From assembly GCA_043818215.1 (NCBI GenBank), contig JBDRGC010000127.1, positions 12,832-76,831 of the forward strand: a DNA stretch of 64,000 nucleotides, written 5' to 3'. Positions within the stretch are counted from its first letter, which is position 1; each line of letters opens with the position of its first letter. The stretch comes from Chloroflexota bacterium (lineage in GTDB: Bacteria > Chloroflexota > Anaerolineae > Anaerolineales > UBA11858). The position numbers were made by a program, and so were the translations under genes. Positions 5,537-64,000 of the stretch are shown here, in pieces. The notes under the pieces were generated by a model. The model was not told the DNA's origin and ran no database searches. It saw nothing but the letters and a program-made list of their open reading frames with translations.

Positions 5537-7132
5537 ATGGAAAACACGACACTCAAACACATCCTCGGTGACATCCCCCTCACCGCCGAACTTTACTGGC
5601 TTCTGCGGCAAACACATCTTCCCCCTGTGGGCGGCTACGATTTGAAGAGGTTGCAAAAAGCGCTCCCCGAATGGGTCGCGCAGGCTCAGGCCACAAAACG
5701 CGCTCAACCCGGCAAGCGCGTGCTGATATTCAGCATGCTGCGCTACTGGATCGAGCAAACCACAATGCTGGGTCTGGCCCTCAGCGCCCTGGGACATGAC
5801 GTGACCCTGGCTTATCTGCCTCACGGTCACTGGAAAAAGCATCTCAAACGTTTTGACCTGCGCCGCCAGAATCTGTATGTGCGTGATACCCTCGAACAGG
5901 TTGAACCCCTGCTGAAGACCATCTCCGTGCTGGAAATGCCGAAAGCCAGAGCGCTCTCCGCCGAGTTAGCATCGCAAATGGATGCCGCCGCCTACCGCGA
6001 CGTGCAGTACAGCCTCCTCCGCGAAGATGTCGAGCGGGATAGTGACTTGTACCGCCTGCGCACGGAGCGCAATCAGGCTCACGCCCGTTCAATGCTGGCC
6101 CGGATGCAGGAACACCGTCCCGACGTAGTCATTGTGCCCAACGGCAGCATCTTGGAATTCGGCATCACCTTCCGGGTGGCGCAATATTTGGGTATCCCCG
6201 TGATGACCTACGAATTCGGCGAGCAAAGCGAGCGGATGTGGCTGGCCCAAAACGCCGACGTGATGCAGCAGGATACCTCCGATTTGTGGACTGCCCGCGG
6301 CGAGATTCCTTTGACCGATACGGAGTGGGCGCGCGTCCGCGATTTTTTCGCCACCCGACAGGGAGGCGGCCTGTGGGAGAACTTTTCCCGCCATTGGCAG
6401 GGGACTCCCGCCCGTGGAGGCAAGCAAACCCGTGCGGAGTTGGGGCTGGATTCGCGACCTGTAGCATTAGTACCTGCCAACGTCCTCGGCGACAGCCTGA
6501 CCCTGGGGCGGCATCTCTTTAGCGGGAGCATGACCGGGTGGCTGGAGCGCACCATTGATTATTTCTCCGAGCGGACTGATGCTCAACTTGTGATTCGCGT
6601 TCACCCTGGCGAGCAGATCGGTTGGGGACCTTCGGTGTACGATATCTTGCGAGAGAAATTCCCTCAACTGCCTGAGCATATCCACCTGATGCCTGCTGAT
6701 GCGCAGGTCAACACCTACGATCTGGTCAACACCGCCGACTTCGGTTTGGTCTTCACCACCACCGTGGGCCTGGAAATGGCCATGAGCGGATTGCCGGTCA
6801 TCGTCACGGGGCAGACTCACTATCGGGGCAAGGGATTCACCCTCGACCCTGATTCGTGGACCGCCTACTTCGCGACCCTCGACCAATTGCTGGAATCCCC
6901 CACGGATCACTGCCCTTCCCGCCGGCAGGTCGAATCTGCCTGGACCTATGCTTACCGGTTCTTCTTCGATTATCCCCAGTCCTTCCCCTGGCATGTCCAG
7001 CACTTCTGGGAAGACGAGGCCAAATGGTCGCTGGCACGGGCCTTGTCGGATGAAGGTATGGCCTTGTTTGGTAAGACGTTCCAGTATCTGGTTGGTGAGC
7101 CGATAGACTGGGGAGCAGGAATCAGGGACTAG
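5537..7132 (+). CDS. large GT-B-like protein, capsule-polysaccharide-biosynthesis-like (function uncertain)
   Basis: 532 aa. The C-terminal half (LVIRVHPGE...DLVNTADFGLVFTTTVGLEMAMSGLPVIV) resembles the nucleotide-sugar-binding half of GT-B / capsule-synthesis proteins. The assignment is tentative. Confidence 0.4.
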   Translation: MENTTLKHILGDIPLTAELYWLLRQTHLPPVGGYDLKRLQKALPEWVAQAQATKRAQPGKRVLIFSMLRYWIEQTTMLGLALSALGHDVTLAYLPHGHWKKHLKRFDLRRQNLYVRDTLEQVEPLLKTISVLEMPKARALSAELASQMDAAAYRDVQYSLLREDVERDSDLYRLRTERNQAHARSMLARMQEHRPDVVIVPNGSILEFGITFRVAQYLGIPVMTYEFGEQSERMWLAQNADVMQQDTSDLWTARGEIPLTDTEWARVRDFFATRQGGGLWENFSRHWQGTPARGGKQTRAELGLDSRPVALVPANVLGDSLTLGRHLFSGSMTGWLERTIDYFSERTDAQLVIRVHPGEQIGWGPSVYDILREKFPQLPEHIHLMPADAQVNTYDLVNTADFGLVFTTTVGLEMAMSGLPVIVTGQTHYRGKGFTLDPDSWTAYFATLDQLLESPTDHCPSRRQVESAWTYAYRFFFDYPQSFPWHVQHFWEDEAKWSLARALSDEGMALFGKTFQYLVGEPIDWGAGIRD

Positions 7133-7188
7133 GAACCAGGGACTAATCACCTAGTCCCTAGCCCCTAATCCCTGGTCACTAGCCCCTA
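7115..7188. repeat. inverted heptamer arrays (CAGGGAC/TAGGAAC then CTAGTCC/CTAGCCC)
   Basis: The left and right arms are approximate reverse complements. The left arm overlaps the 3' end of the preceding CDS. Confidence 0.8.
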
Positions 7189-12981: not shown

Positions 12982-13056
12982 AACGTGAAGCGTGAAAACG
13001 TGAAGTTACGTATCACGCTTCACGTTTCCCGTCTCATGCCTCACGCCTCACGCATC
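12982..13056. repeat. inverted heptamer words (ACGTGAA / CACGCTT-CACGCCT)
   Basis: acgtgaagcgtgaaaacgtgaag is followed by cacgcttcacgtt and the CTCACGC units. Confidence 0.75.
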
Positions 13057-15035: not shown

Positions 15036-15224
15036 GTCCGCGAGTCAGCGAGTCAGCGAGTCGGCGAGTTGGCGAGTTGGCGAGTCAGCGAGTCGGCGAG
15101 TCAGCGAGTCAACGAGTCGGCGAGTCAGCGAGTTGGCGAGTTGGCGAGTTGGCGAGTCGGCGAAGTAGAAGATTGTCGAATCGCTGATTCGTTGATTCGT
15201 TGATTCGCTGACTCGCTGACTCAC
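15036..15224. repeat. octamer array (GCGAGTCA/GCGAGTTG/GCGAGTCG, ~16 units) with short inverted arm (GATTCGYT/GACTCGCT)
   Basis: Read directly. The array is stop-free, which generates the spurious ORF 15045..15239. Confidence 0.9.
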
Positions 15225-15241
15225 CGCACCAGGAGACACTT

Positions 15242-16012
15242 ATGCTTACATTCGACAACCTCACAACTGAATTCCGCGCCATTGGCGTACAAACGGGCGA
15301 TACATTACTCGTCCACTCGTCATACAAATCCTTCGGCGGCGTGGAGGGCGGCCCGCAGACGGTGATCGACGCTTTGCTGCACGTTCTTGGCGACGCAGGC
15401 ACCCTCATTATGCCAACTTTCAATTTCGATTTTTGCAAGGGTAAGCCCTGGGATGTGCGCTCCACGCCCTCACACATGGGAGCCATCACCGATATGGTGC
15501 GCGAACATCCTGACAGCCGCCGCGTTTTTCACCCGATTTATTCTTTCGCAATTCTTGGCAAGCACGCAGAATTTCTAACCAAAGAGCGCTACAAGAGCAG
15601 CTATGAGCGCAACTCGCTGTTTGGCAAGTTGCGTGACTTGGACGGCAAGATAATGGTAGTCGGCCTGAGTTATAACGACAGTATGACCTTTTTTCATCAC
15701 ATCGAGGAGTTAGAGGGGGTGGATTACCGCTATATGAAAGTGTTCACCGGCATGGTCACGGACGAGAACGGCAATACCTACAAAGATACTTTCACTATGC
15801 TGGTGCGTGACATCGAGAAGGGCGTGCAGACCATGGTCGATCCCATGGGCGCTTTGATGGAAGATGAGGGAGTCATCACGGTTAGCAAAATTGGTGAGGC
15901 CAAAGTCAGTTTGATGAAGGCCAATGAGGTCTACGAGTTCACGGCTCGAGAGATGAAGCGCGACCCGATGTTGTTGTATCAGATTGAAGGAAACCAGGGA
16001 CTAGGGAACTAG
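15242..16012 (+). CDS. AAC(3)-family N-acetyltransferase (aminosugar acetyltransferase in this context)
   Basis: LVHSSYKSFGG...GTLIMPTFNFDFC is the pattern of the aminoglycoside 3-N-acetyltransferase fold. The 3' codons (GNQGLGN) are array-encoded. Confidence 0.75.
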   Translation: MLTFDNLTTEFRAIGVQTGDTLLVHSSYKSFGGVEGGPQTVIDALLHVLGDAGTLIMPTFNFDFCKGKPWDVRSTPSHMGAITDMVREHPDSRRVFHPIYSFAILGKHAEFLTKERYKSSYERNSLFGKLRDLDGKIMVVGLSYNDSMTFFHHIEELEGVDYRYMKVFTGMVTDENGNTYKDTFTMLVRDIEKGVQTMVDPMGALMEDEGVITVSKIGEAKVSLMKANEVYEFTAREMKRDPMLLYQIEGNQGLGN

Positions 16013-16087
16013 GGACTAGGAATCGGGAACTAGGAAGCTACTACATTCCCGACCCCTAATCCCTAATCCCTGATCCCTAGTCCCTGC
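15990..16087. repeat. inverted heptamer arrays (CAGGGAC/TAGGGAC then CCCTAAT/CCCTAGT)
   Basis: Read directly. It spans the stop of the acetyltransferase gene. Confidence 0.85.
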
Positions 16088-16092
16088 CTCCC

Positions 16093-17433
16093 ATGCTAAA
16101 AGAAATTCTCACCCAACTCTATCCCCTCCACCGCACGCTGGCTTGCGACGGTACTGACGAAGCCTTGCGCATTGTCGGTGCGCAGATGCCCGCGGCCGCA
16201 GGATATGCTATCGAAACCTACACCCCCGGCGCGCCCGTTTGGACGTGGAAGGTGCCGGAGCGATACATAGTTCACGAGGCTTATCTTGAAACGGAGAACG
16301 GCCAGCGCATCGTAGATTTTGCCGACAACCCTCTGCATATCGTTTCGTATTCCCTGCCCATAGACAAACTTCTTACCTGGGATGAACTCGAATCCCACCT
16401 GTATTTCAGCGAGAAACTGCCCCACGCCATCCCCTGGATTTTCAAATATTATCAGCGCGATTGGGGATTCTGCCTGCCCAAAGACACCTTCGACAAGTTG
16501 CCGCGGGATACCCGTTACCGGGCTGTCATCCGCAGCGAGTTTGTCACCGATCCCGATCATGGATTCCGCATCTCAACGGGAGTCCTAACCCCTAACCTCC
16601 TAACCCCTAACCCCCAAACTCCTAACTCGTATAGTACTAACAACCCCGGCGAATTCTTCATCTCCTCCCACATCTGCCACCCCATGCAGGCCAACGATGA
16701 TGCTGCCGGAGTGGTGACGGCCATCGAAGTGGCCCGCCGCCTGGCAGAGAATCCGCTTCCCCCTGGGTCGATGTCGGTGCGCTTCTGGTTCGGCCCGGAG
16801 ACCATCGGCACCATCGCTTACCTGGCTCACCACGAAGACCTGATTCCCCAACTCAAGGGCGGCATCTTCGTGGAGATGACTGGCAACCGCAGCCCCATTG
16901 CCTGGCATCACAGCCGCCAACACGACCACCTGCTCGACCGCGTCACAGACTACGTTCTACGCAACACGGATCACGTCGAGCGCGATTTCGCCGCCCACCC
17001 CGCCAATGACGAACGCGTCATCAACGGCCCCGGCGTCAACGTGCCCTGCATCTCGATCAACCGCTGGCCCTACGATGAGTACCACACCAGCGATGACAAC
17101 CTTGACATCATCCACGAAGATATGCTCCAGGAAGCCGCCGACGTGATCGAAGAAATCGTGCGAATTTATGCCAGCAACTACATACCCAGGCGTACATTCC
17201 GCGGACCGGTGTTTCTCTCCGGTCACGGGCTGTGGGTCGATTGGCGCGATAATTGGGAACTCAACCGCGCCATCGAAAAAATTATGATGCGCTTCGAGGG
17301 ACAGCACAGCATTTTCGACATCGCCGAAGAGGTGGGCCTGGATTACTGGGTGGTGCGCGAATACGTCGAAAAATTCCGGGCTAAGGGTTTTGTGAAAGCG
17401 CTGCCTATTCCCGGCGAGTCTCCGGGTTCATAG
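16093..17433 (+). CDS. aminopeptidase-like domain protein of polysaccharide loci (DUF4910/COG4310-like) with C-terminal winged-helix
   Basis: 446 aa with the M28-like core HICHPMQANDDAAGV. It contains an in-frame heptamer array at 16584-16628. Confidence 0.6.
   Translation: MLKEILTQLYPLHRTLACDGTDEALRIVGAQMPAAAGYAIETYTPGAPVWTWKVPERYIVHEAYLETENGQRIVDFADNPLHIVSYSLPIDKLLTWDELESHLYFSEKLPHAIPWIFKYYQRDWGFCLPKDTFDKLPRDTRYRAVIRSEFVTDPDHGFRISTGVLTPNLLTPNPQTPNSYSTNNPGEFFISSHICHPMQANDDAAGVVTAIEVARRLAENPLPPGSMSVRFWFGPETIGTIAYLAHHEDLIPQLKGGIFVEMTGNRSPIAWHHSRQHDHLLDRVTDYVLRNTDHVERDFAAHPANDERVINGPGVNVPCISINRWPYDEYHTSDDNLDIIHEDMLQEAADVIEEIVRIYASNYIPRRTFRGPVFLSGHGLWVDWRDNWELNRAIEKIMMRFEGQHSIFDIAEEVGLDYWVVREYVEKFRAKGFVKALPIPGESPGS
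16584..16628. repeat. in-CDS heptamer array (CCTAACC)
   Basis: It encodes LTPNLLTPNPQTPN inside the DUF4910-like protein. Confidence 0.8.
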
Positions 17434-20088: not shown

Positions 20089-20479
20089 CCCCACTGATTG
20101 GCTTTATTTTGCTCGTGAAGATCTTCGTGTGGCAGAATTGACGCTATCGAATGAGATTTACAACCAGGTATGTTTCCACTCTCAACAATGTTGTGAGAAG
20201 GCTCTCAAAGCCTGGCTTGCTCATCAAGGTATTGAATCGCCGAGAAAACATCAATTGAGTGTGCTATTGGCCCTTTCGACGATTGATATTTTTGCAGAGT
20301 TAGGTGGGGATATCGTTCGTCTTGATCGTTTTTACATTCCCACTCGCTATCCTGACGTGCTGGCAGGTTCACTTCCTGAGGGACTTCCAAATAAAGCAAA
20401 TGCCGAGGAAGCTATTGATACTGCTCGCAAAGTTCTCCACCGCGTCGAACAACATATTTCCACCCAACCCTCCCGTTGA
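20081..20479 (+). CDS. HEPN-domain toxin (copy B, diverged)
   Basis: FAREDLRVAE...FHSQQCCEKALKA and IPTRYPD motifs. The last ~19 residues are nearly identical to copy A. Confidence 0.75.
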   Translation: MGSPTDWLYFAREDLRVAELTLSNEIYNQVCFHSQQCCEKALKAWLAHQGIESPRKHQLSVLLALSTIDIFAELGGDIVRLDRFYIPTRYPDVLAGSLPEGLPNKANAEEAIDTARKVLHRVEQHISTQPSR

Positions 20480-21405
20480 TTCATCTCCCCTCACCTCTCT
20501 CCCCTCTTCCCTCTCCAAATATCATTGCCATCATTCAGGCTCGCATGGACTCATCACGCTTGCCGGGAAAAGTGCTGCTCGATATCGGCGGTCGTCCGAT
20601 GCTCCAGTGGGTCGTCGAGCGCACCCGCCGCGCCAAAACCGTGGACGAAGTCATCGTCGCCACCACCACCGACCCATCCGACGATGCCGTAGCCCAATTT
20701 TGCGAGGCCAAAGGTTACCCCGTCACCCGCGGCAGCATCCACGATGTGCTGGATCGCTACTACCAGACCGCCCGGCAATTCAAAGCCGACGTCATCGTGC
20801 GCATCACTGCCGATTGTCCGCTGATTGACCCCGCGCTGGTGGACGGGACGGTGTTCTCGTTATTTGAGATTGGAGATTGGAGATTGAAAGCCGAATCTCC
20901 AATCTCAAATCTCAAATCCCCGATTTTTGACTTCGTCGCCAACCGCCTCCCGCCTCCCTGGGGACGCACCTACCCCATCGGCCTCGACACCGAAGTTTTT
21001 ACATTCGATGCTCTGGAACGTGCCTGGAAGCGAGCTATCGCCAGACACCACCGCGAACATGTCACCCCCTATTTTTACGAAGACACTCCTGTCGATCATT
21101 TGAAATTCAGTGTGCAGGGATCGGAATTTTCCAGCGCCATGACACTTGATGGACTCCACATCGCCTTGCTCCACCACGACCCCGACTACGGCCGCCTGCG
21201 CTGGACGGTGGACACCCCCGCGGATTTGGAACTGGTGCGCGCTATTGTGGCCCATTTCGATAGCCGCGACGACTTCACCTGGCAGGATGTGCTGGCTATC
21301 TTCGAGCGCGAGCCGGAACTGGCGCAAATCAACGCCAGCGTGCGGCACAAGACACACTTGGATGTGGACGATAGGTCAGTAAATCAGGAAGCAGTAAATC
21401 AGTAA
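20476..21405 (+). CDS. cytidylyltransferase-domain protein (SpsF/PseF-like CMP-sugar synthetase family)
   Basis: IIQARMDSSRLPGKVLLDIGGRPML is the N-terminus typical of the SpsF/COG1861 family. The start codon is uncertain (TTG at 20476). It contains an in-frame array at 20866-20919, and its tail (NQEAVNQ) is array-encoded. Confidence 0.7.
   Translation: MIHLPSPLSPLPSPNIIAIIQARMDSSRLPGKVLLDIGGRPMLQWVVERTRRAKTVDEVIVATTTDPSDDAVAQFCEAKGYPVTRGSIHDVLDRYYQTARQFKADVIVRITADCPLIDPALVDGTVFSLFEIGDWRLKAESPISNLKSPIFDFVANRLPPPWGRTYPIGLDTEVFTFDALERAWKRAIARHHREHVTPYFYEDTPVDHLKFSVQGSEFSSAMTLDGLHIALLHHDPDYGRLRWTVDTPADLELVRAIVAHFDSRDDFTWQDVLAIFEREPELAQINASVRHKTHLDVDDRSVNQEAVNQ
20866..20919. repeat. in-CDS inverted heptamer array (GAGATTG x3 / AATCTCC-AATCTCA)
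   Basis: It encodes EIGDWRLKAESPISNLKS inside the cytidylyltransferase. Confidence 0.8.
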
Positions 21406-21588
21406 ATCAGGAAACCAGGAAACCAGGAATCAGTAGATCAGGATGCCAGGGAAGACTGATTTACTGATCTACTGATCTACTGATCTACTGATCTACTGAT
21501 TTACTGATCTACTGATTTACTGATCTACTGATCTACTGATTTACTGATTTACTGATCTACTGATCTACTGATCTACTGATCTACTAAC
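21376..21588. repeat. octamer arrays with inverted arms (CAGTAAAT/CAGGAAAC then CTACTGAT/TTACTGAT x~18)
   Basis: Read directly. It spans the stop of the upstream CDS and ends 3 nt before the next ATG. Confidence 0.9.
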
Positions 21589-27004: not shown

Positions 27005-28051
27005 ATGCGCCCGATAGGAAACATGATAAACAAAATCACTAGCCGATTGAAGCTGACCGCCCGAGTGTTTCTTACCGGGCAAATTCTCTCGAATCCGAGA
27101 GGGGAAATTCCCTCCATCACCCCCGAAGAGGTTGCCGAGGCCCGCGAATTCTTCCCCCTCGACAAATTCTTCATCTTCGGCCACGCCCGCTCCGGCACCA
27201 CTCTGCTCACTCGCCTGATCCGCCTGCATCCCGACGTGCATTGCAACTACCAGGGGCATTTCTTCACCCGCCAGCCCACGCTGGAGGGGTTGGTACACAG
27301 CGCCGAGATCGAAGCCTGGCTCACCCGCCGCAGCAATCGCTGGAACCGCGGGCGTGATCTGTCACCCGTGGTGCTGCGTGCCGCGGTGGACTTCATCATG
27401 GAGCGCGAAGCCCGTCCGCTGGGGGCGCGAGTGGTGGGCGATAAAAGCCCCAACAGCCTGCTGAACGGCGAGGCCGTGCGGCTGATGCACAAAGTCTACC
27501 CCGATGGTAAGCTCATCTTTATCGTGCGCGACGGGCGTGACGCAGCCGTTTCGCATCGTTTCCAGACATTTATCGACGCCACCCAACACCTGACAAAAGA
27601 AGACTGGACTATCCGGGAGGCCTTCGAGCGTGACCCGGAGCCGTTCCTGCGTGGCGAACGCTCGATTTTCACCGGGTCGGGCATTCGCACAGCCGCCGAG
27701 GGCTGGGTGCGCAACGTCACCGAGACCGACGAACTTGGCAGGCAGATTTTCGGCCAGCAATACATCTCCCTGCGCTACGAAGACCTGCTCTCCCAACCCT
27801 GGGAGCAGATGGCGCGCTTGTGGCATTTCCTCGACGTGGATACCGAGTTACCCGATTTGCCCGAAACCCTGCGATCCGAACTCACCAGCAACCCCGATAG
27901 GGACTGGCAGCGGCAGAAAGCCGGCGAGTTGGTCGAACCGCTGCAAAAGGGCAAATCCGGCTCCTGGCGGAATTTGTTTGCCAGACGGGATAAGGCGGTG
28001 TTCAATGAGATTGCGGGAGATGTGCTCACTCATTGGGGTTATGGTGACTAG
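27005..28051 (+). CDS. sulfotransferase-family protein
   Basis: 5'-PSB loop GHARSGTTLL and 3'-PB motif IVRDGRDAAVS, characteristic of PAPS-dependent sulfotransferases. Confidence 0.8.
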   Translation: MRPIGNMINKITSRLKLTARVFLTGQILSNPRGEIPSITPEEVAEAREFFPLDKFFIFGHARSGTTLLTRLIRLHPDVHCNYQGHFFTRQPTLEGLVHSAEIEAWLTRRSNRWNRGRDLSPVVLRAAVDFIMEREARPLGARVVGDKSPNSLLNGEAVRLMHKVYPDGKLIFIVRDGRDAAVSHRFQTFIDATQHLTKEDWTIREAFERDPEPFLRGERSIFTGSGIRTAAEGWVRNVTETDELGRQIFGQQYISLRYEDLLSQPWEQMARLWHFLDVDTELPDLPETLRSELTSNPDRDWQRQKAGELVEPLQKGKSGSWRNLFARRDKAVFNEIAGDVLTHWGYGD

Positions 28052-28172
28052 GGATTAGGAACCAGGAAACCAGGAAACCAGGAAATCAGGAAACCAGGAA
28101 ACCAGGAAATACCGCCCCCTGGTCTACTGATTCCTGATTTACTGATCTACTGATCTACTGTTCTACTGATAC
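28049..28172. repeat. octamer arrays with inverted arms (CAGGAAAC then CTACTGAT)
   Basis: Read directly, between the sulfotransferase and oxidoreductase genes. Confidence 0.9.
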
Positions 28173-28179: not shown

Positions 28180-29385
28180 ATGAAATTTCTCATCGCCGGC
28201 TTCGGCTCCATCGGACGCCGCCACTTTCGTAATTTGCTTGCTTTGGGTGAGCGTGACATTGTGTTCCTGCGCAGCAAGCGGAGCACTCTGCCCGATGCCG
28301 AGATAGCCGCTTTCCCCGTGGAGACTGATATTCAAGCTGCGCTGGCACACAAGCCGGATGCGGTGATTGTCTCGAATCCCACGTCGCTGCATTTGGATGT
28401 GGCCCTCCCGGCGGCGGAAGCGGGCTGCCACATTTTTTTGGAGAAGCCCATCTCCCATTCGATGGAGCGCGTGGACGAATTGCAGGCCGCAGTCCAGCGC
28501 GGGGGCGGGCAGGTGCTCGTCGGCTTCCAATTTCGCTTTCACCCCAGCCTGGGCCTCATCAAACAATGGTTGTCGGGCAACCACGCCCCACGCTCCACGC
28601 CTCACGCTCCACCCCCCACGCCCCATGCTCTACGCTCCACGCCACACCCCCCACGCCCCATGCTCCACGCCTCACGCTCCACGCCCCACGCTCCACGCTC
28701 CACGCCCCACCACACCCCACGCCCCACGCACCACTCCCCACTCCCCGCGCCCCCAATCTCCAATCTCCAATCTCTAATCTCCAATCCCCACTCCCCCATC
28801 GGCCGGCCCCTTTCCGCCCGCGCCCACTGGGGCGAATATCTCCCCGGCTGGCATCCCTGGGAAGATTATCGGCAGGGGTACAGCGCGCGGGCAGATTTGG
28901 GAGGCGGCGTGATTCTGACACTTTGCCATCCTTTGGATTATCTGCGCTGGTTGTTGGGTGATGTGACAGGATTGTGGGCGTTTACGGGAAAGGCCGGCGA
29001 TTTGGAGTTGGCAGTCGAAGATACTGCTGAAATCGGGCTTCATTTCGCCAGCGGAGTGATTGGCAGTGTGCATCTGGATTATAATCAACGCCCCCCGTCC
29101 CATCACTTGGAAATTGTGGGAACTCATGGAACCATCCGCTGGGACAATGCCGACGGCGCGGTGCATATCTATCGTGCCTCTTCTGATGAATGGGGCATTT
29201 ACCCGCTTCCGCAGGGGTTCGAGCGCAACCAATTGTTCCGGGATCAGATGAAGCATTTCTTAGCGGTCGTGGGTGAGGGCGAGCAGCCTGTCTGTACTCT
29301 CGAAGATGGTGTGTGGGCATTAAGGCTGGCATTGGCCGCGCACGAGTCGGCTCGAAAAGGGGAAGTTATTACTTGGGCAGCGTGA
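28180..29385 (+). CDS. Gfo/Idh/MocA-family oxidoreductase carrying a ~70-aa array-encoded insertion
   Basis: The N-terminal Rossmann domain (MKFLIAGFGSIGRRH, EKP motif) and the C-terminal Gfo-type domain are separated by the low-complexity stretch HAPRSTPHAP...PISNLQS. Confidence 0.75.
   Translation: MKFLIAGFGSIGRRHFRNLLALGERDIVFLRSKRSTLPDAEIAAFPVETDIQAALAHKPDAVIVSNPTSLHLDVALPAAEAGCHIFLEKPISHSMERVDELQAAVQRGGGQVLVGFQFRFHPSLGLIKQWLSGNHAPRSTPHAPPPTPHALRSTPHPPRPMLHASRSTPHAPRSTPHHTPRPTHHSPLPAPPISNLQSLISNPHSPIGRPLSARAHWGEYLPGWHPWEDYRQGYSARADLGGGVILTLCHPLDYLRWLLGDVTGLWAFTGKAGDLELAVEDTAEIGLHFASGVIGSVHLDYNQRPPSHHLEIVGTHGTIRWDNADGAVHIYRASSDEWGIYPLPQGFERNQLFRDQMKHFLAVVGEGEQPVCTLEDGVWALRLALAAHESARKGEVITWAA
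28580..28796. repeat. in-CDS heptamer arrays (CACGCCC/CACGCTC ~24 units, then CCAATCT ~5 units)
   Basis: Read directly. It is open in all three forward frames and two reverse frames (ORF track 28180.., 28367.., 28566.., 28559..28921, 28602..28799). Confidence 0.9.
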
Positions 29386-33198: not shown

Positions 33199-34251
33199 AT
33201 GCCCGATTTACCTCGACTTTTCGATCTGACAGACCGCGTTGCCATCGTCACCGGCGCCGCCGGCCTGTTGGGAACTGAATTCTGCCGCACACTGGCCGAG
33301 GCTGGGGCGGCGGTTACGATTGCGGATATGGATGGGGACTCTGCCGCTGATGTGGCGGATACCCTCACCCGAGGCGGATTCCGCGCCCTGGGGCTTAAAA
33401 CCGACGTGACCGCGCCGGATTCCGTTACCCGAATGGTGGCTGCTACCCTGGGGGCATTTGGGCGTCTCGACATCCTGGTTAACTCCGCCGCTCTCGATCC
33501 CAAGGTCAGGGAGCAGGAAGCAGGAAACCAGGAATCAGGAAACCAGGGATTAGGGACTAGGGATCAGGGACTAGGGACTAGGGATCAGGGATCAGGAAAC
33601 CAGGGATCAGGAAACCAGGGATCAGGAAACCAGGGATCAGGAAACCAGGGATCAGGAAACCAGGGATCAGGAAACCAGGGATCAGGAAATCAGGGATCAG
33701 GGACTAGGAATCAGGAACCGGGAGAATCCCTAACCCCTAACCCCCTAACCCCTAACCCCTTGTCCCTCACCTTCGAAGACTACCCCCTCGAACTCTGGCA
33801 GCAAGCTCTGGACGTCAACCTGACGGGGGCTATGCTATGCTGTCAAGCCGCCGTGCGGCCCATGTTGGAACAGGGCCGCGGGGTCATCATCAACATCGCT
33901 TCCATCTACGGCCTCGCCGCCCCCGACCAGCGACTCTATCAGCGTGAAGGGCAGTTCCCGCAGTACAAGCCCGCCTATTACACCGTCACCAAAGCCGGCG
34001 TGCTCGGTCTCACCAAATATCTGGCGGCCTATTATGCTGGCAAGAATATCCGCGTCAATGCCCTGACTCCCGGCGGCGTCTACAACGGCCACGATGACGA
34101 GTTCGTCAAAGCCTACTCCGCCCGCGCCGTCATGGGCCGCATGGCCGAAAAAGACGAGATGAACGGCGCCCTCCTCTTCCTGGCCTCCGAGGCCTCCAAA
34201 TACATGACCGGCGCTAATCTCATCGTCGATGGGGGCTGGACAGCGTGGTGA
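33199..34251 (+). CDS. SDR-family oxidoreductase carrying an ~85-aa array-encoded insertion
   Basis: TGAAGLLG, NSAA and YxxxK (YTVTK) motifs. The insertion (GSGNQ)n lies right after the NSAA strand. ATG at 33199. Confidence 0.75.
   Translation: MPDLPRLFDLTDRVAIVTGAAGLLGTEFCRTLAEAGAAVTIADMDGDSAADVADTLTRGGFRALGLKTDVTAPDSVTRMVAATLGAFGRLDILVNSAALDPKVREQEAGNQESGNQGLGTRDQGLGTRDQGSGNQGSGNQGSGNQGSGNQGSGNQGSGNQGSGNQGSGTRNQEPGESLTPNPLTPNPLSLTFEDYPLELWQQALDVNLTGAMLCCQAAVRPMLEQGRGVIINIASIYGLAAPDQRLYQREGQFPQYKPAYYTVTKAGVLGLTKYLAAYYAGKNIRVNALTPGGVYNGHDDEFVKAYSARAVMGRMAEKDEMNGALLFLASEASKYMTGANLIVDGGWTAW
33506..33762. repeat. in-CDS arrays: CAGGAAAC/TAGGGAC words, a 15-nt (7+8) unit CAGGGATCAGGAAAC x~8, then CCTAACC
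   Basis: Read directly. The 15-nt composite period keeps the frame and gives (GSGNQ)n. Confidence 0.9.
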
Positions 34252-34352
34252 TTCCAGTGTTCAGTATTCAGTTTTCAGTAAAACCGAACACCGAATGCCG
34301 ATCACTGAACACTGAACACTGGACACTGAACACTGAATACTGATGACTGAAA
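34252..34352. repeat. inverted heptamer arrays (TTCAGTG/TTCAGTA then CACTGAA)
   Basis: Read directly, immediately after the SDR stop. Confidence 0.85.
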
Positions 34353-34396
34353 CCCCCGCCCTCACCCCCGCCCGCGGCGGTTGGACGGCTTGGTAA
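34343..34396 (+). pseudogene. orphan 5' end (13 codons + junction) of the NeuA-like cytidylyltransferase gene
   Basis: ATG ACT GAA ... GCC CGC GGC GG encodes MTETPALTPARGG, matching LIPARGG of the intact gene at 37205-37225. It diverges after GCGGCGG. Confidence 0.6.
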
Positions 34397-34529
34397 AAAG
34401 AGCGTTCAGTGCCGGGGGGGGGGTATAATCAAGTATCCGATTCAAGAGGAAAGACACGGATGCGAGGGTGGAAAATGAATTGGCGCAATACAATGTAGTA
34501 TTGGCTTTGCAGCTTGGAGGTTTGGCGTT

Positions 34530-34889
34530 ATGAGTACACTTGATTTGCCAACAACTCTGACGAAGGAGATTCGATGGGAAGCAGAGACCGCTGGAATGTC
34601 AGTGGCGGATTTGCTAGGAGATGCAATTTACCATTACAAGTTAGTATTACAACGCCGCAAGATCAACGCGGAAGCCACTTGGTGGAATAGCGCATCTTCC
34701 GAGATACGTGACATCTACCAGGGGGAATACGTCGCGATTCACTGCCAACAAATTGTGGACCACGACGTTGATCGAGCAGCGCTCTATGACAGAGTGAGAA
34801 AGAAGTACGAAGACGCGGCTGTGCTCATTACCCCGGCCCGTGGAATTCCAACGCTTCGCATCTTAAGCCCTCGCCTGGAACGTTTATGA
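34530..34889 (+). CDS. DUF5678-like small protein (antitoxin-like partner of the aspartic protease)
   Basis: The YQGEYVAIHCQQIVDHD pattern is present, with a 4-nt overlap with the downstream gene. Confidence 0.45.
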   Translation: MSTLDLPTTLTKEIRWEAETAGMSVADLLGDAIYHYKLVLQRRKINAEATWWNSASSEIRDIYQGEYVAIHCQQIVDHDVDRAALYDRVRKKYEDAAVLITPARGIPTLRILSPRLERL

Positions 34890-35293
34890 ACATACCTTAT
34901 GATCCCTCGTACTGGCCGCCCTTTCCGGTTTTAGAAATTTCCCTGGCTCTGCGAGAGCAGCGACCTCAGGTTGGGCCTCTGCTTGCCCTGGTCGATACAG
35001 GCGCAGATGGGACTTTTATTCCCATCACGCATATCAAAACTTTGAGAGCGCCTGTGAGCGGACAGATGATCGTTCATCCGCAGTTTGGCAGCCCATACGT
35101 AGCACATACGCATACATTGGATGTTTTAGCCGGATCAATTCGGCTTTCCGCAATAGAGATTGTAGGAGATGACACGGGAAACGAGATTATTCTGGGTCGT
35201 AATCTGCTCAATAAGTTGGTGATGCTGCTAGATGGGCCGCAGGCTCAAACCGGCGTTTGGGAAAGCCGCCCGGATATTCACTGGCGGAAATAA
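34886..35293 (+). CDS. retropepsin-like (clan AA) aspartic protease
   Basis: ALVDTGADGTFIP contains the D-T/S-G catalytic triad, and the later IILGRNLL flap/closing motif is present. Confidence 0.6.
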   Translation: MNIPYDPSYWPPFPVLEISLALREQRPQVGPLLALVDTGADGTFIPITHIKTLRAPVSGQMIVHPQFGSPYVAHTHTLDVLAGSIRLSAIEIVGDDTGNEIILGRNLLNKLVMLLDGPQAQTGVWESRPDIHWRK

Positions 35294-35377
35294 GATAAAG
35301 GACACGGATGCGAGGGTGGAAAATGAATTGGCGCAATACAATGAACGCATCCCAGGAGTAATTGTTGGAGGTGTAGG

Positions 35378-35650
35378 ATGAAAAGAGTATTGATGTTTCC
35401 GATGTTTCGGTATGTAAAAGCTGCTTTGAGTCAGGCGGAATATGAGCGCAATGAGGATGGCGTCATCATTGCCCAGATAACGAACGCATCTGGTTTTTAC
35501 GCCCAAGGGGACACTTTCGAGGAAGCCCGCGAGAACTTGCGAGACGTAATCGAAGGCAATGTAGTATTGGCTTTGCAGCTTGGGTTGGAGATTCCGGCTA
35601 TCGAGGGGATAATCATTGAGGAACAAAATGTCGAGGCTGTCGCCGCTTAA
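35378..35650 (+). CDS. hicB: HicB-family antitoxin (second locus)
   Basis: GVIIAQITNASGFYAQGDTFEEARENLRDVIE is the pattern of HicB/UPF0150. Confidence 0.65.
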   Translation: MKRVLMFPMFRYVKAALSQAEYERNEDGVIIAQITNASGFYAQGDTFEEARENLRDVIEGNVVLALQLGLEIPAIEGIIIEEQNVEAVAA

Positions 35651-35852
35651 GCCCCATCAGGTCATTCACAAATTACAGAAGCTGGGCTATGAGGGGCCGT
35701 ATCCAGGAGGCCGTCACGTTCGCATGGTTCACGAGGAAACAGGGCAAATCGTTCCTATACCTATGCACAAGGGCAAGGATGTTAGCGTTGGGCTGATTCG
35801 GGCTATCATCCGTCAGGTTGGCATTACGCCCGAAGAGTGGAAGGAGTTGTAA
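35628..35852 (+). CDS. hicA: HicA-family toxin (second locus)
   Basis: The KPHQVIHKLQKLGY...GGRHVRMVH pattern is present. ATG at 35628 preferred over 35616. Confidence 0.7.
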   Translation: MSRLSPLKPHQVIHKLQKLGYEGPYPGGRHVRMVHEETGQIVPIPMHKGKDVSVGLIRAIIRQVGITPEEWKEL

Positions 35853-35982
35853 GGTTGAGAAAATCACAATATTAACATCCAATCTCCAATCTCCAGTCCC
35901 CAATCTCCAATTACCAGGTTCTGGTCCTCATCCCTGCCCGCGGCGGCTGGACGATGTAGTGAGGCAGAATGCATCGGGGAAC

Positions 35983-36327
35983 ATGAATATGAAGCTTCGC
36001 GATCTCGTCAATCGAGTTAGTATCGACCCTCGCAAACTAACAGAATACGCGTTACACCCCGATCACCCAAGAGGTGGTCACAAAGCGCGTGTATTTGAGG
36101 CGGCACTGGGATATAATCAAAGCAACTATCAATCCCTGCTTGACCAAATCGCGGATGAAGCCCTGGAATCTGAAGTGATACCAGGACAGGTTGATCAATT
36201 TGGGCAACGGGTCTGTGTTGGTTTGGAAGTTACAGGTGTGGAAGGCCAACGAGTGATTGTGCTAAGTGTTTGGATGATAGTGTCGCATGGTAGCGAAGCT
36301 CGTCTGGCCACATTGTATCCAAAGTGA
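35983..36327 (+). CDS. DUF6883-like protein
   Basis: 114 aa from the ATG at 35983. The KLTEYALHPDHPRGGHKARVFEAALG pattern is recalled for DUF6883. Confidence 0.5.
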   Translation: MNMKLRDLVNRVSIDPRKLTEYALHPDHPRGGHKARVFEAALGYNQSNYQSLLDQIADEALESEVIPGQVDQFGQRVCVGLEVTGVEGQRVIVLSVWMIVSHGSEARLATLYPK

Positions 36328-36336
36328 GAAGAGCTT

Positions 36337-36690
36337 ATGTCCGATCCAGAACTTTTTGATGTAATAGAATTACTCACAGATGTGCCTGAACAAAACCTGC
36401 GCGCAGGTACTCAGGGTACCATTGTGCATCAATATTCCGATGAAATTTTTGAAATCGAGTTCACCAACACTGAGGGAGAGACGTTGGCCTTGTGTGCGCT
36501 TCCATTTCGGCAGTTTATTGTCGTCTGGCAATCGGAGTATCAACGATGGGTACCAGTCGTTGAGCAACTTGTCCAAATAGTTGCTCGCTTGCCAGAAAAA
36601 GCTGGGACAGAAGTGCTCGACTTTGCACGATTTATCAGCGTTCGCACTGAACACCGTCACCCCACCCGCGTAGAACGTGTAGCTGCATAG
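36337..36690 (+). CDS. DUF4926-like protein
   Basis: FDVIELLTDVPEQNLRAGTQGTIVHQY..EIFEIEF is the pattern recalled for DUF4926. It is paired with the upstream gene. Confidence 0.5.
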   Translation: MSDPELFDVIELLTDVPEQNLRAGTQGTIVHQYSDEIFEIEFTNTEGETLALCALPFRQFIVVWQSEYQRWVPVVEQLVQIVARLPEKAGTEVLDFARFISVRTEHRHPTRVERVAA

Positions 36691-37065
36691 ATCCCTTATC
36701 CCTGGTAGTCCCCAAGATTGGCGGAGCATCCGGTACCAATCACGCGTACAGATAGCCAACGTGATAATATTATCCAATTGGCAGATTTTGTAGCCGGGGC
36801 AACCTACCAAAAACACATCCGAGGCAATTGTGTGTACACAGACCTTTTCGCCGAACGAGTGGTAGTGGAACGCACCATCCAATGGCACCCAAAATAAAAA
36901 AGGACAGGGATCCCGAGGGGCGTTTTAACCTGATCTTGTGTCAGGTGGGCCACGGTAATCGCGACCCCGCCGCACTCAGCCTTACTCCCTGTCATTGCTT
37001 ATAGTCTACTACAAAATAAGACAGAGGCAAACAGCAAAAGGGGTGAGAAAATCACAACATTAACA

Positions 37066-37190
37066 TCCAATCTCCAATCTCTAATCTCTAATCTCCAATC
37101 TCCAATCCCCAACCTCCCATGTACAATCCCCAATCCCCAATCTCCAATCTCCATTCTCCAATCTCCATTCTCCATTCTCCAATCTCCAAT
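37066..37190. repeat. heptamer array (CCAATCT and variants, ~17 units)
   Basis: Read directly. It contains the only in-frame ATG (37119) of the NeuA-like ORF. Confidence 0.9.
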
Positions 37191-37931
37191 TACCAGGTTC
37201 TGGCCCTCATCCCCGCCCGCGGCGGATCGAAATCCATCCCCCGCAAGAATATCATCGACTTTGCCGGCCACCCGCTGATCGCTTACAGTATCGCCGCAGG
37301 ACTGGCCGCCGAGACTGTGACGCGGGTGATCGTCTCCACCGATGACGATGAGATCGCCGCCATCTCCCGCCGCTGCGGGGCCGAGACTCCCTTTCTGCGT
37401 CCTGCGGAACACTCTCTCGACAACACCCCCGACCTGCCCGTCTTCCGGCAGGCCCTGGAATGGCTGGCCGACAACGAAGGCTACTGCCCGGACATCGTCG
37501 TCCAACTGCGGCCCACTTCCCCTTTCCGTCGCGTTTGGCATATCGACCAGGCTGTCTTGCGGCTCATCGAGCACCCCGAAGCCGACGCGGTGCGCACCGT
37601 CTGTGTGCCCTTCCAGAACCCCTTCAAAATGTGGCGCATCGCCCCCGACGGGTTAATGCAGCCCCTCGGAACCGAGCTGGGCATCCCCCGCGAGCCATAC
37701 AACCAGCCCCGGCAAGCCCTCCCCGAAGTCTACTGGCAGACCGGCTACGTCGATGCTGCCTGGGCCGACACCATTCTCTCGAAGAATTCCATGACCGGGG
37801 ACGCAATCCTACCCCTGGTCATCGACCCCTCCGAATGGGTGGACATCGACTCTCCCAATGATTGGCGCAGGGCGGAGAGACTGTTGGAGAGCGGGGAGGT
37901 TACTTTGGATGATCTAGGTTTTTCTATTTAG
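37119..37931 (+). CDS. acylneuraminate cytidylyltransferase family (NeuA/LegF/PseF-like CMP-nonulosonate synthetase)
   Basis: LIPARGGSKSIPRKNI N-terminal motif and the CTP_transf_3 layout. The first ~25 codons are array-encoded, so the true start is uncertain. Confidence 0.8.
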   Translation: MYNPQSPISNLHSPISILHSPISNYQVLALIPARGGSKSIPRKNIIDFAGHPLIAYSIAAGLAAETVTRVIVSTDDDEIAAISRRCGAETPFLRPAEHSLDNTPDLPVFRQALEWLADNEGYCPDIVVQLRPTSPFRRVWHIDQAVLRLIEHPEADAVRTVCVPFQNPFKMWRIAPDGLMQPLGTELGIPREPYNQPRQALPEVYWQTGYVDAAWADTILSKNSMTGDAILPLVIDPSEWVDIDSPNDWRRAERLLESGEVTLDDLGFSI

Positions 37932-38322
37932 GAATCAGTAGGTCAGTAGATCAGTAGATCAGTAAATCAGGGATCAGTAGATCAGTAAATTAGTAAATCA
38001 GTAGATCAGTAAATCAGGAATCAGTGGATCAGGGAGCAGTAGATCAGGAATATAATCAGGGTTTCCTGATTTCCTGATTTCCTGGTTTCCGGATTTCCTG
38101 ATTTACTGATTTCCTGATTTACTGATTTACTGATTTCCTGATTTCCTGATTTCCTGGTTTCCTGATTTCCTGATTTCCTGGTTTCCTGATTTCCTGGTTT
38201 CCTGGTTTCCTGGTTTCCTGATTTCCTGGTTTCCTGGTTTCCTGATTTCCTGGTTTCCTGGTTTCCTGGTTTCCTGATTTCCTGGTTTCCTGGTTTCCTG
38301 GTTTCCTAGTTTCCTAGTTTCT
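37931..38322. repeat. largest array in the window (~390 bp): CAGTAGAT/CAGTAAAT arm then TTTCCTGA/TTTCCTGG arm
   Basis: About 48 octamer units can be read directly, with an orientation switch near 38055. It generates the spurious ORF 38127..38411. Confidence 0.9.
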
Positions 38323-39043: not shown

Positions 39044-39076
39044 ATAATCAATATGGGTGAGTTGGGGTTTTCTATT

Positions 39077-39262
39077 GGGGACTGGTAAATTGGGGAGTGG
39101 TAAATTGGTAAATTGGGGATTGGTAAATTGGTAAACTGGGGACTGGTGATTGGTTCCCAGCTTACCAACCTACCAATCTACCAATCTACCAACCTACCAA
39201 CCTACCAATCTACCAATCTACCAATCTACCAATCTACCAACCTACCACTCCCCAATTCCCAA
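39077..39262. repeat. octamer arrays with inverted arms (TGGTAAAT/TGGGGACT then CCAATCTA/CCAACCTA)
   Basis: Read directly, ending 5 nt before the kinase ATG. Confidence 0.9.
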
Positions 39263-46593: not shown

Positions 46594-46845
46594 GTTGCTC
46601 AAAATGTTAGTGGTGGATTGCATCCCAAAGGAAGCGTACCCACCAACAAAACCGAATTGTAAATGGTAAATGGTGAATTATAAATGGTAAATGATTGTGG
46701 CGCTGTCTGCACTTCATTTACAATTTACCATTCACCAGTTACCATTTATAATTTCATTCCCCCCTGCATAATTCAAATGACGCACTTTGGGGGGCAAAAA
46801 AGCATTTATGGGGATAACTTGAATAGACCGAACTGCAATATCATG
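46594..46845 (+). repeat. 252-bp dispersed repeat, copy A (contains a TAAATGG inverted heptamer hairpin)
   Basis: Near-identical to 48222-48473 in direct orientation. Confidence 0.9.
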
Positions 46846-47025: not shown

Positions 47026-48195
47026 ATGAATAAAAAACGTCCATTCGTACTCCATCTAACCTGGGTGGTATTAGCTGTGATCATCATTGCTGCCATTGTA
47101 TTGGCATCTTTGGTTCTGAAAAATATCGCCAACGAGAATTCACAAATCATACCCATTTACAGTCCAGGATCATATAATTTCGAGGGCCAAGCTGTGCGCC
47201 TGGCCTGGTTTTACAAGCCGCCTGTAGATGGCAATCTGGCTTCAGTGGCCGAGAACTTCGACACTATCATTTTGACATCCAACGATGAAAACGAGCGCGA
47301 TGAGCTTCAACAACGCGGCCTTGACACCCCCATTTTGCAATATCTAAGTTTCGACGCCATCCAAGATCCTGGCTCATGCGATGCCCAGCCCTACCAAAAC
47401 CAGGTCGCCAACCAGATCGGCGATTTCTGCCGTATCAGCGAACAGCACCCCGATTGGTTTCTGCTAGATATGCACGGCGAACGCATGAGTAACGGGAGCG
47501 GAAGCGTGATGATGGACCCCGGCAACCAGGAGTGGCGCGCCTTTTGGCTGGAGCGGGCCATCCAAAGCCAGGAACACCTCGGTTGGGATGGCGTTTTCCT
47601 TGACAATGTGGAGGCCAGCCTAAGCAAGCGCGCCCGCCGGGGACAGCTCCCCGCGGCTTACCTCACCAATGCCAGCTACCAAACTGCTGTTTTGAGATTT
47701 TTGCAATACATCTACATTAACTACTTTCAACCACAACAACGCCCCCTGATGGCCAATATTATCGCACTGGAAAATGAGGGCATCTGGTTCGATTATCTGC
47801 AATTTCTTGATGGCGTCATGGATGAAGGATGGGCAGTCGATTGGGAAGATGGTTACCGCAGCTCTGGCAGTTGGGAAGCAGACCTCGTCCGGGCCGAGGA
47901 GACTCAAGGGCTTGGCAAAACGATCCTGCTCGTCTCACAAGGGAATTACAGCGATATCCAACGCCAGGAATTTACCTTTGCCTCATACCTGCTCATCACC
48001 TATGGACGGGCCGCATTCCGCTACACCCACGCCGATCATTATAATGAAATTTGGCTTTATCCAGCCTACGACCTCGATCTGGGGGAACCTCTGGGCGGGC
48101 GTTATATCGACGGCAATCTGTGGCGCCGCGATTTCACCAACGGAACCGTGACCGTTGATCCCCTGAATCATACTGCGACGATTAGTGGGCCGTGA
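47026..48195 (+). CDS. exported/anchored putative glycoside-hydrolase-like protein (GHL15 / TIM-barrel-like)
   Basis: N-terminal TM/signal anchor, with WFLLDMHGERM...MMDPGNQEWRAFW...WDGVFLDN reminiscent of the GHL15/GH114-like families. Tentative. Confidence 0.4.
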   Translation: MNKKRPFVLHLTWVVLAVIIIAAIVLASLVLKNIANENSQIIPIYSPGSYNFEGQAVRLAWFYKPPVDGNLASVAENFDTIILTSNDENERDELQQRGLDTPILQYLSFDAIQDPGSCDAQPYQNQVANQIGDFCRISEQHPDWFLLDMHGERMSNGSGSVMMDPGNQEWRAFWLERAIQSQEHLGWDGVFLDNVEASLSKRARRGQLPAAYLTNASYQTAVLRFLQYIYINYFQPQQRPLMANIIALENEGIWFDYLQFLDGVMDEGWAVDWEDGYRSSGSWEADLVRAEETQGLGKTILLVSQGNYSDIQRQEFTFASYLLITYGRAAFRYTHADHYNEIWLYPAYDLDLGEPLGGRYIDGNLWRRDFTNGTVTVDPLNHTATISGP

Positions 48196-48221: not shown

Positions 48222-48473
48222 GTTGCTCAAAATGTTAGTGATGCATTGCATCCCAAAGGATGCGTACCCACCAACAAAACCGAATGGTAAATGGTAAATG
48301 GTGAATTATAAATGGTAAATGATTGTGGCGCTGTCCGCACTTCATTTACAATTTTCCATTCACCATTTTCCATTTATAATTTCATTCCCCCTTCATAATT
48401 CAAATGACGCCCTTTGGGGGGTAAAAAAGGCATTTATGGGAATAACTTGAATAACCCGAACTGCAATATTATG
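48222..48473 (+). repeat. 252-bp dispersed repeat, copy B
   Basis: Near-identical to 46594-46845. It abuts a truncated trmO-like fragment. Confidence 0.9.
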
Positions 48474-60661: not shown

Positions 60662-60710
60662 GGGTTGGGGATGATCGCCGACGGACGACGGGTGACGGGC
60701 GACCGACGAC

Positions 60711-63796: not shown

Positions 63797-63897
63797 GTGG
63801 CTAGGGACTAGGGGCTAGGGATCAGGTACTAGCCCTTATCCCTGGTTTCCTATTTTCCTAGTCCCTAGTTCCTAGTTCCTAGTTTCCTAATCACTAG
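63797..63897. repeat. inverted heptamer arrays (CTAGGGA/CTAGGGG then TTCCTAG)
   Basis: Read directly, between two minus-strand genes. Confidence 0.85.
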
Positions 63898-64000
63898 TCA
63901 ATCAAGTCCAACAAATCTTCGTACTCTTCATCCTTCATAGTGAACCAATTCTCGCGCTGCGGGAAAGTTTTGTCTTTCACTTCTGAAACGTATTCCTGCA
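63896..64000 (-). CDS. 3' end of an unidentified gene running off the window
   Basis: The open frame on the minus strand ends ...EEYEDLLDLID then TAG (CTA at 63896-63898). It is too short to classify. Confidence 0.25.

Follow-up and report, generated by a model that had tools for sequence, protein, structure and literature searches.

In a 64 kb window (the whole stretch of DNA analyzed here) from an uncultured Anaerolineales bacterium (Chloroflexota), the plus-strand coding sequence (CDS) at 33199..34251, which is translated without internal stops into 350 amino acids (aa) plus stop, encodes an oxidoreductase of the short-chain dehydrogenase/reductase (SDR) family in which the loop between strand beta4 and helix alpha4 is built from words of 7 and 8 bases. 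We propose, with a probability of about 80%, that this loop is a hypervariable, in-frame array of simple sequence repeats (SSRs), i.e., a 7/8-base microsatellite, that derives from the intergenic repeat system of the lineage and is tolerated by the enzyme. An earlier reading of the DNA, made without database searches (the sequence-only reading), had noticed a repeat-built, in-frame insertion of ~85 aa directly after the NSAA strand. The insertion is confirmed in the sequence, but it spans 89 codons, a net gain of ~77 aa compared with orthologs that have no array and a loop of 12 aa.

An intact enzyme with a repeat-built loop

The product of 33199..34251 is a member of the SDR superfamily by its profile matches, its motifs, and its modeled Rossmann fold. 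The Pfam families adh_short_C2 (1.2e-48; 166.3 bits against a cut-off of 27) and adh_short (3.3e-38; 131.6 bits against a cut-off of 26.6) both match in two stretches around the insert. Similarly, the 539 solved SDR chains matched by sequence align in two blocks, residues 6-98 and 193-348, and at the position of the insert the solved structures have ~7 residues between these blocks. The N-terminal Rossmann part (residues 1-102; 33199..33504, plus strand), delimited by the structure model and the invariant columns, contains the cofactor motif T18-G19-x-x-G22-x-x-G25 and strand beta4, where the NNAG-type motif reads N95-S-A-A98. The C-terminal catalytic part (residues 192-350; 33772..34248, plus strand), delimited by the translation and the alignment columns, contains N232, S235, and Y261-x-x-x-K265; the catalytic S235 and Y261-T-V-T-K265 are intact. 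In an alignment of 47 homologs, the columns of the cofactor, beta4, and catalytic motifs are invariant or near-invariant. Furthermore, the ratio of nonsynonymous to synonymous substitution rates (dN/dS) in the domain flanking the loop is 0.11-0.16 against four array-bearing relatives; purifying selection acts on this domain.

The repeat-built loop covers residues 103-191 (33505..33771, plus strand), i.e., 267 nucleotides (nt) or 89 codons, from the first codon after ...NSAALDPK to the last codon before FEDYPLELWQQALDVNL, and lies between strand beta4 (NSAA) and helix alpha4 (FEDYPLELW). It is made wholly of short words, which form a purine-rich left arm (word types CAGGAAAC, CAGGGAT, and TAGGGAC) and a pyrimidine-rich right arm (CCCTAAC and CCCCTAAC). 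The left arm opens with degenerate CAGGRAR(C) words, (G)TCAGGGA GCAGGAA GCAGGAAAC CAGGAAT CAGGAAAC (33505..33543, plus strand), which are nearly the same in L081, one of the three closest relatives described below. Next come two 21-nt units of 3 x 7 bases, CAGGGAY TAGGGAC TAGGGAT (33544..33585, plus strand), which encode QGLGTRD twice and are absent from L081. The core array consists of six exact copies of the 15-nt unit CAGGGATCAGGAAAC (33586..33675, plus strand; 0 expected in 100 shuffles) and a seventh copy that departs from it by one synonymous change, C>T (33676..33690, plus strand), so that the "about 8 exact copies" of the sequence-only reading have to be corrected to six plus one. In register, the core (33586-33690) encodes (GSGNQ)x7; read from 33586, it is QGSGN x7. 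The degenerate bridge words CAGGGAT CAGGGAC TAGGAAT CAGGAAC CGGGAGAA (33691..33726, plus strand), which are conserved as ...CAGGAACCAGGAGAG in L081 and as ...GGGAACTGGGAGAA in the second close relative, L082, lead into the right arm, TCCCTAAC CCCTAAC CCCCTAAC CCCTAAC CCCTTGT CCCTCACC (33727..33771, plus strand), which encodes SLTPNPLTPNPLSLT.

Tandem Repeats Finder (TRF) detected periods of 7, 8, and 15 over 33506-33760. For 33521-33717, it reported a period of 15 with 13.4 copies, 87% matches, and a score of 268, and for the right arm a period of 15 with 100% matches. With units of 5-11 nt that are repeated head to tail beyond chance, the loop array belongs to the long-SSR class; it also has in common with this class a copy number that varies between relatives (by 75-147 nt) and, within the window, a population of arrays that lie mainly at gene boundaries. 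We also observed that the sense strand at 33544-33592 carries seven consecutive GGG tracts with a 4-nt spacing, a canonical G-quadruplex motif inside the CDS.

How can words such as TAGGGAC and CCCTAAC be translated? Their phasing places every TAG and TAA outside the reading frame. Across the array cluster at 33506-33760, the frame in use is the only open one of the six, and the other five carry 4-13 stops. In the 21-nt units and the heptamer run, CAG opens each word that falls in codon phase 0, and TAG opens those in phases 1 and 2. Throughout the right arm, the 8-mer that follows every 7-mer holds TAA out of frame. This stop-avoidance signal is modest and is what simple survivorship would give.

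An AlphaFold2 model built on the 47 homologs shows a confident Rossmann core, with predicted local distance difference test (pLDDT) scores of at least 90 over most of the core, alternating beta and alpha elements, block means of 85-98 for residues 11-100, and a strand at residues 92-95. Residues 104-187, between this strand and the helix at 197-225, have pLDDT values below 50 and no secondary structure. The 89-residue, Gly/Ser/Asn/Gln-rich insert is thus predicted to be a disordered loop, and its modeled position between beta4 and alpha4 agrees with the loop-type placement for which the sequence-only reading had proposed AlphaFold as a check. In Pfam, the insert has no domain match above threshold. 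The sole match inside it is Pentapeptide_2 (PF01469), which covers residues 131-167 only and scores 25.1 bits, below the cut-off of 26.4; the resemblance is compositional, and this identity was rejected. A search of the whole window against Rfam at gathering thresholds gave no match to a known structured RNA.

Loop variation among orthologs

Orthologs were drawn from the 120 best protein matches (P0001-P0120) and from genome loci L001-L086. Their synteny is conserved: a gene for a bifunctional sulfate adenylyltransferase/APS kinase (sat/cysC) precedes the SDR gene, which is followed by CMP-sugar synthetase, NeuB, and capsule (Capsule_synth) genes. The most common single form of their loop is the array-free, 12-residue FDPQSKKSHSGA, and loops of at most 13 residues account for about half of the 120 best protein matches and for 54 of the 82 loci scored. 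In a large minority of the orthologs, the loop at this codon is expanded to 14-64 residues, a purine-rich arm being again followed by a pyrimidine-rich one. The syntenic orthologs have loops of 11-64 aa at this site, with related words, and across ten loci the loop measures 42-267 nt at the same codon; the 89 residues of the window are the longest loop seen among the orthologs compared. The loop words include GGGGATA and its complement in L085, and AACAGGRG followed by GATTCCCT in L083. By sequence, a V-type (VRxQ...PLSLT) and an F-type (FDPEHQG..GDKGEGE..PIPSPLSPNSLA) of loop can be distinguished. Apart from these, the loop of L022 is an Ala/Pro/Gly-rich repeat, and that of L037 is a repeat of the 15-nt GGGCAGACCCTGCCT.

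In the coding sequence around the loop, the three closest relatives (L081, L082, and L086) are 84-91% identical to the window at the nucleotide level. Both array ends, including a homologous right arm, are present in them too, but the core array is missing, and they contain 0-1 GSGNQ unit. The (GSGNQ)n stretch is not conserved. Its conservation in genomes that lack such words, the result that the sequence-only reading had named as fatal to its proposal, was not found. The window loop is longer by 147 nt (7 x 15 + 2 x 21) than that of L081, by 132 nt than that of L082, by 126 nt than that of L086, and by 75 nt than that of L083. All four differences, and one in a GFO/IDH/MocA-family gene of the window described below, are multiples of 3 made from 15- and 21-nt steps. 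On the other hand, the intergenic array at 37930-38321 is 302 nt longer than in L082, which is not a multiple of 3. Furthermore, none of the 79 sequences inspected (78 loci and the window, all consensus assemblies) has a frameshift across the loop.

One metagenome-assembled genome (MAG) provides a nearly identical copy of part of the locus. Its short-read contig (L084; GCA_018812425.1, JAHJDT010000463.1; 4416 nt) is 99.9% identical to window positions 33632-38047, and both of its ends fall within arrays, the start in that of the SDR and the end in that at 37934-38047. Its overlap with the SDR array, the 3' part, is identical, including four core copies. The source genome of the window does not figure among the 80 best loci of the genome collection. 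Arrays of this kind lengthen proteins and split domain matches, and they appear to break short-read MAG contigs and to yield partial gene calls. Among metagenomes scanned for strain-level alleles, the exact 29-mer of the right boundary found nothing, and a scan with the degenerate DPK-VRxQ pattern found 33 places, none of which is an SDR loop.

These comparisons suggest the following history. The lineage would possess an intergenic system of 7/8-base word runs, usually followed by runs of the complement, that form hairpins, and an array of this system would have been present at the SDR codon already in ancestors common to several related species. Later, units would have been gained and lost by replication slippage, the survivors being the alleles that hold the frame and are free of stops. 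Because such alleles alone would survive, the visible steps would be those of 15 nt (7+8) and 21 nt (3 x 7). The array at this codon, common to many orthologs, is thus probably not a fresh insertion; the 147-nt core expansion alone appears to be recent, the left arm of the window genome having presumably grown by this length (7 x 15 + 2 x 21). The enzyme would tolerate the 89-residue loop, which would be neutral and have no function as a folded unit. If so, the SDR is a natural example of how non-triplet microsatellites can persist inside an essential fold by way of frame-neutral composites and stop-avoiding phases, the outcome being a hypervariable, disordered loop within a strongly constrained enzyme.

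The array population of the window and the origin of the loop

TRF returned 113 rows for the window, which merge into 38 clusters of 7/8-nt arrays in 64 kb (50.7 bases per kb, or ~5%). The arrays lie mostly at gene boundaries and are far commoner between genes than within them. A typical array pairs a run of one word with a subsequent run of the complement, and each locus mostly has its own word. Folding was tested for three intergenic arrays, all of which gave strong hairpins (z = -5.4, -7.8, and -12). The array density of related Anaerolineales loci ranges from 0 to 36 bases per kb.

The words of the SDR loop recur in this population, in the arrays at 7117-7188, 15988-16085, 21376-21585, 28049-28170, 37930-38321, and 63801-63899. 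Seventy-five percent of its 7-mers are also present in the other arrays of the window, which together hold 1810 distinct 7-mers, or ~11% of the 16384 possible. The sequence-only reading had stated that the same words occur in non-coding gaps, and indeed CAGGAAAC is found at 21408/21416 and at 28063-28095, with 13 minus-strand occurrences at 38061-38293, while sibling arrays use CAGGAAAC, CAGGGAC, and TAGGGAC. Its conclusion that the insert comes from the intergenic system and not from a protein domain is upheld by these common words, by the layout in a purine and a pyrimidine arm, and by the Pfam result. Its further idea, that the frame-neutral 7+8 unit reflects selection on the coding sequence, is supported by the 15- and 21-nt steps and the multiple-of-3 differences but does not extend to the pairing itself. 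Composites of 7+8 (periods 15 and 23) occur outside mapped ORFs (open reading frames) too, at 15988-16022, 21377-21433, and 39074-39154, which indicates that the pairing is a property of the repeat system that is filtered by selection rather than made by coding.

In keeping with an intergenic source, array-type loops lie on contigs with arrays elsewhere, and 12-aa loops lie mostly on contigs without. Of the contigs with loops of at least 18 residues, 12 of 19 have 7/8-nt arrays elsewhere, compared with 12 of 54 for loops of at most 13 residues, and loop length is associated with arrays elsewhere (Mann-Whitney p = 2.5e-5, no phylogenetic correction).

Several observations weigh against this interpretation. 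In a neighbor-joining (NJ) tree of the flanks, the V-type loops were monophyletic in 0 of 200 bootstrap replicates; a single origin of the array loop is thus unsupported by the NJ bootstrap, in a tree of 240 residues only. The RNA fold of the lopsided SDR insert itself is no better than that of shuffled sequence (z = 0.02), so that its hairpin ancestry rests on relatives, among which the loop arrays of L083 (z = -4.9) and L048 (z = -3.4) fold as hairpins. Shuffling of the word order left the insert stop-free in 3.6-10% of trials, which makes the stop avoidance only modestly improbable. Finally, the full copy number of the SDR array rests on one assembly, as L084 starts inside the array.

Two hairpin arrays of the window, at 46640-46760 and 48268-48388, form a duplicated pair of direct repeats, 96% identical including the loop and flanks. 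They bracket a GHL15-family gene (47026-48195), and a local duplication or a cassette-like arrangement is possible. Apart from this pair, arrays at different loci use different words, and an identity as miniature inverted-repeat transposable elements (MITEs) or repetitive extragenic palindrome (REP)-like elements was rejected.

Could the arrays be elements that spread by themselves? It is possible, if unlikely, that the (word)n-(complement)n hairpin arrays are undescribed self-propagating elements of Anaerolineales that colonize gaps and permissive loops, have invaded the same SDR loop, for the first time or anew, in several lineages, and may act as mutational switches inside genes of the surface-polysaccharide locus. 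The patchy distribution, the different words at one site, and the duplicated hairpin pair go beyond what simple slippage alone would produce. Another reading, in which the SDR array came in as, or gave way to, a mobile hairpin cassette that repeatedly targets this site instead of growing from one ancestral seed, strikes us as rather improbable. Array-type loops (beginning GTC AGG ...) do appear in four or more clades with good support, and three of these cluster with non-array sequences (72-99% bootstrap), the clades differ in the words at the SDR loop (as in L085 and L083), and the 96%-identical hairpin copies stand on either side of a gene. However, with each locus having its own word, there is no common element sequence, and no transposase or integrase gene was found beside the arrays among the listed ORFs scanned. 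When genome representatives are ranked by nucleotide identity, the nearest five have array-type loops without exception, as simple inheritance predicts. Moreover, array-bearing loci resemble one another no more closely in the flanks beside the loop than in the distal parts of the gene, which speaks against a recent transfer of the loop between lineages. One ancient gain followed by recombinational replacement would fit these data as well as repeated gains at a site that is permissive or targeted.

It is very doubtful that the loop is a selected protein feature, such as a flexible Gly/Ser/Asn/Gln tether or an interaction module. Some expansion of the loop persists in many orthologs of well-separated lineages, and the frame is always kept. 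On the other hand, the core copies are identical in DNA, including synonymous positions, which points to recent slippage rather than to selection on amino acids; near relatives differ freely in loop sequence and length (40 to 89 aa); the composition tracks nucleotide words common to non-coding arrays; and the insert has neither a domain match nor, in the model, an ordered structure. Low-complexity inserts such as the Asn-rich ones of Plasmodium falciparum proteins offer a parallel, being slippage-made, compositionally biased, disordered, tolerated in the surface loops of conserved enzymes, and variable between close relatives. Their origin lies in repeats at the codon level (3n) of an AT-rich eukaryote, whereas the source here is a bacterial system of 7/8-nt hairpin arrays.

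We also give little credence to a contingency (phase-variation) switch, in which a single 7/8-base slippage would turn the SDR off and the other array genes of the locus would be switched likewise. The word lengths are not multiples of 3, and the gene lies in a surface-polysaccharide locus, among sulfotransferase, glycosyltransferase, cytidylyltransferase, and Polysacc_synt_2 genes in the window and near NeuB and Capsule_synth in syntenic relatives. Several genes of the locus have in-CDS arrays, including the GFO/IDH/MocA gene with its run of ~24 degenerate heptamers. In having an SSR of non-3n words in a CDS of a surface-polysaccharide locus, the SDR resembles the contingency loci of Haemophilus, Neisseria, and Campylobacter. 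Unlike in those loci, however, the exact unit is a frame-neutral 15 nt (and 21 nt), so that the favored step keeps the frame, and neighboring single words differ. No OFF allele was seen among the 79 loop sequences, in consensus assemblies that are blind to minority alleles, and the arrays are mostly intergenic. An assembly artifact or a decaying pseudogene is very unlikely: short-read contigs of the 99.9%-identical MAG do break inside the SDR array and the next large one, and arrays of this kind resist assembly, but the independent contig is identical in its overlap down to four core copies, homologous arrays occur in many independent assemblies, the ORF is intact with S235, Y261, and K265 present, and the flank dN/dS is as low as 0.11.

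Known heptamer repeats and further arrays of the window

The SDR array fits the prokaryotic class of heptamer repeats; its words and its phylum set it apart. A literature search on heptamer arrays in Chloroflexota, Chloroflexi, or Anaerolineae found no description. The heptamer words of cyanobacterial short tandemly repeated repetitive (STRR) sequences differ from those of the SDR array. According to the work of Mrazek and colleagues, as quoted in PMC4679880 and PMC4692102, heptamers are the dominant long-SSR class (units of 5-11 nt) in many bacteria, with slippage as the proposed mechanism, and, as quoted in PMC4679880, units of 3n length are usually tolerated in genes. In contrast to the 3n units of this class, frame neutrality is reached in the SDR array by a composite (7+8 or 3 x 7).

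The genomes of Xanthomonas and Nostoc contain hundreds of arrays of G-rich heptamers of the GGGNATC type, mostly intergenic (Rehm et al. 2015, PMC4692102). Their copy number varies widely, they are strongly over-represented in the non-coding DNA that separates genes of like orientation, they are under-represented on the coding strand, and they are often paired with a nearby complement to give potential stem-loops, 70-75 per Xanthomonas genome (PMC4692102). The arrays of the window are similar in their tandem 7-nt GGG words, variable copy number, mostly non-coding location, and complement pairing. They differ in their words (CAGGGAT, TAGGGAC, CAGGAAAC, and many others, with each locus having its own), in the mixing of 8-mers with 7-mers, in the phylum, and in the presence of an array within the coding sequence of a catalytic domain, on its coding strand. 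The cyclic units of the SDR array, GGGATCA, GGGACTA, and GGGATTA, are similar to the GGGNATC and GGGGA(C/T)T units but do not match them, and this identity was rejected.

Similarly, marine Beggiatoaceae have abundant intergenic direct repeats of the heptamer TAACTGA (MacGregor 2015, PMC4679880). A minority of these arrays lie in ORFs, in the stop-free orientation, where they encode a 7-residue peptide repeat, mostly at protein termini, and MacGregor argued that insertions persist only at tolerant protein positions (PMC4679880). Abundant intergenic heptamers with a minority in ORFs are common to both systems. In contrast to the one dominant word genome-wide of Beggiatoaceae, there are many words here, and the array occupies an internal loop of a conserved enzyme, where it can be traced across many species.

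The SDR is not the only gene of the window with an in-CDS array; at least three others have arrays bracketed by Pfam matches, and two more are probable. In the GFO/IDH/MocA ORF (28180-29385, plus strand), an in-frame array at 28560-28790 of ~24 degenerate CCACGCC heptamers and ~5 CCAATCT words corresponds to about residues 127-204 (...HAPRSTPHAPPPTPH...), with the Rossmann domain (2-116) before it and the C-terminal domain (207-397) after it. Its ortholog in L082 has 345 aa, the array gap being 168 nt (24 heptamers) shorter. Pfam matches lie on both sides of, or span, the 7-nt arrays at 13571-13635 in a GT4 ORF (12985-14193) and at 16583-16626 in a DUF4910/M28 ORF (16093-17433); the latter array encodes LTPNLLTPNPQTPN, and its CCTAACC words are those of the SDR right arm. 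The 7-nt array at 20862-20918 in a cytidylyltransferase ORF (20476-21405), an inverted pair of ATTGGAG/AATCTCA words, lies inside a lengthened CTP_transf_3 match, and a Melibiase-like ORF (58184-60874, minus strand) has one at 59680-59752, immediately upstream of its only domain match.

Among the arrays outside genes, the nearest begins four bases after the SDR stop. This hairpin array, (CAGTRTT)n, loop, (CACTGAA)n (34255..34351, plus strand; TRF), has an RNA fold of -32.1 kcal/mol (z = -5.4) and is of the same length in L081 and L084. Two sibling arrays with words of the loop are CAGGAAT CAGGGAC TAGGAAC CAGGGAC followed by CCTAGTC words (7117..7188), at ORF boundaries, and AGGAAAC CAGGGAC TAGGGAAC TAGGGAC ... 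followed by CCCTAAT/CCCTGAT/CCCTAGT (15988..16085; TRF), between mapped ORFs. Also between mapped ORFs, the array at 21376..21585 has CAGGAAAC/CAGGAAT among ATCAGTAA words and then (ACTGATCT)x16. The intergenic array at 28049..28170 reads TAGGGAT TAGGAAC (CAGGAAAC)n, followed by CTACTGAT words. The largest array, of ~390 nt (37930..38321; TRF), is (ATCAGTAG)x15 followed by (GGTTTCCT)x33, in which GGTTTCCT is the reverse complement of AGGAAACC; it has two word families in common with 28049-28170, in reverse-complement order (AGGAAACC-CTACTGAT versus ATCAGTAG-GGTTTCCT). Downstream of the last mapped ORF, a hairpin array has CTAGGGA words followed by TTCCTAG/TCCCTAG (63801..63899), and further examples are found at 10553-10668, 15034-15219, and 39083-39247. 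In 22 array clusters, folding energies on the two strands were compared, as were the numbers of G-U pairs, and neither showed a consistent preference for the strand of the flanking genes; the array at 15034-15219 folds at -121 kcal/mol on the plus strand versus -73 kcal/mol on the minus strand, and other arrays favor the minus strand.

Finally, ~2.8 kb of small genes (~34380-37200) lie between the SDR and the downstream cytidylyltransferase of the window, among them DUF5678-like and aspartic-protease-like genes, a HicA/UPF0150 pair, DUF6883, and DUF4926. The SDR and the cytidylyltransferase are adjacent in L081, and different toxin-antitoxin-type modules lie between them in L082 and L083, so that this interval looks like a variable slot.

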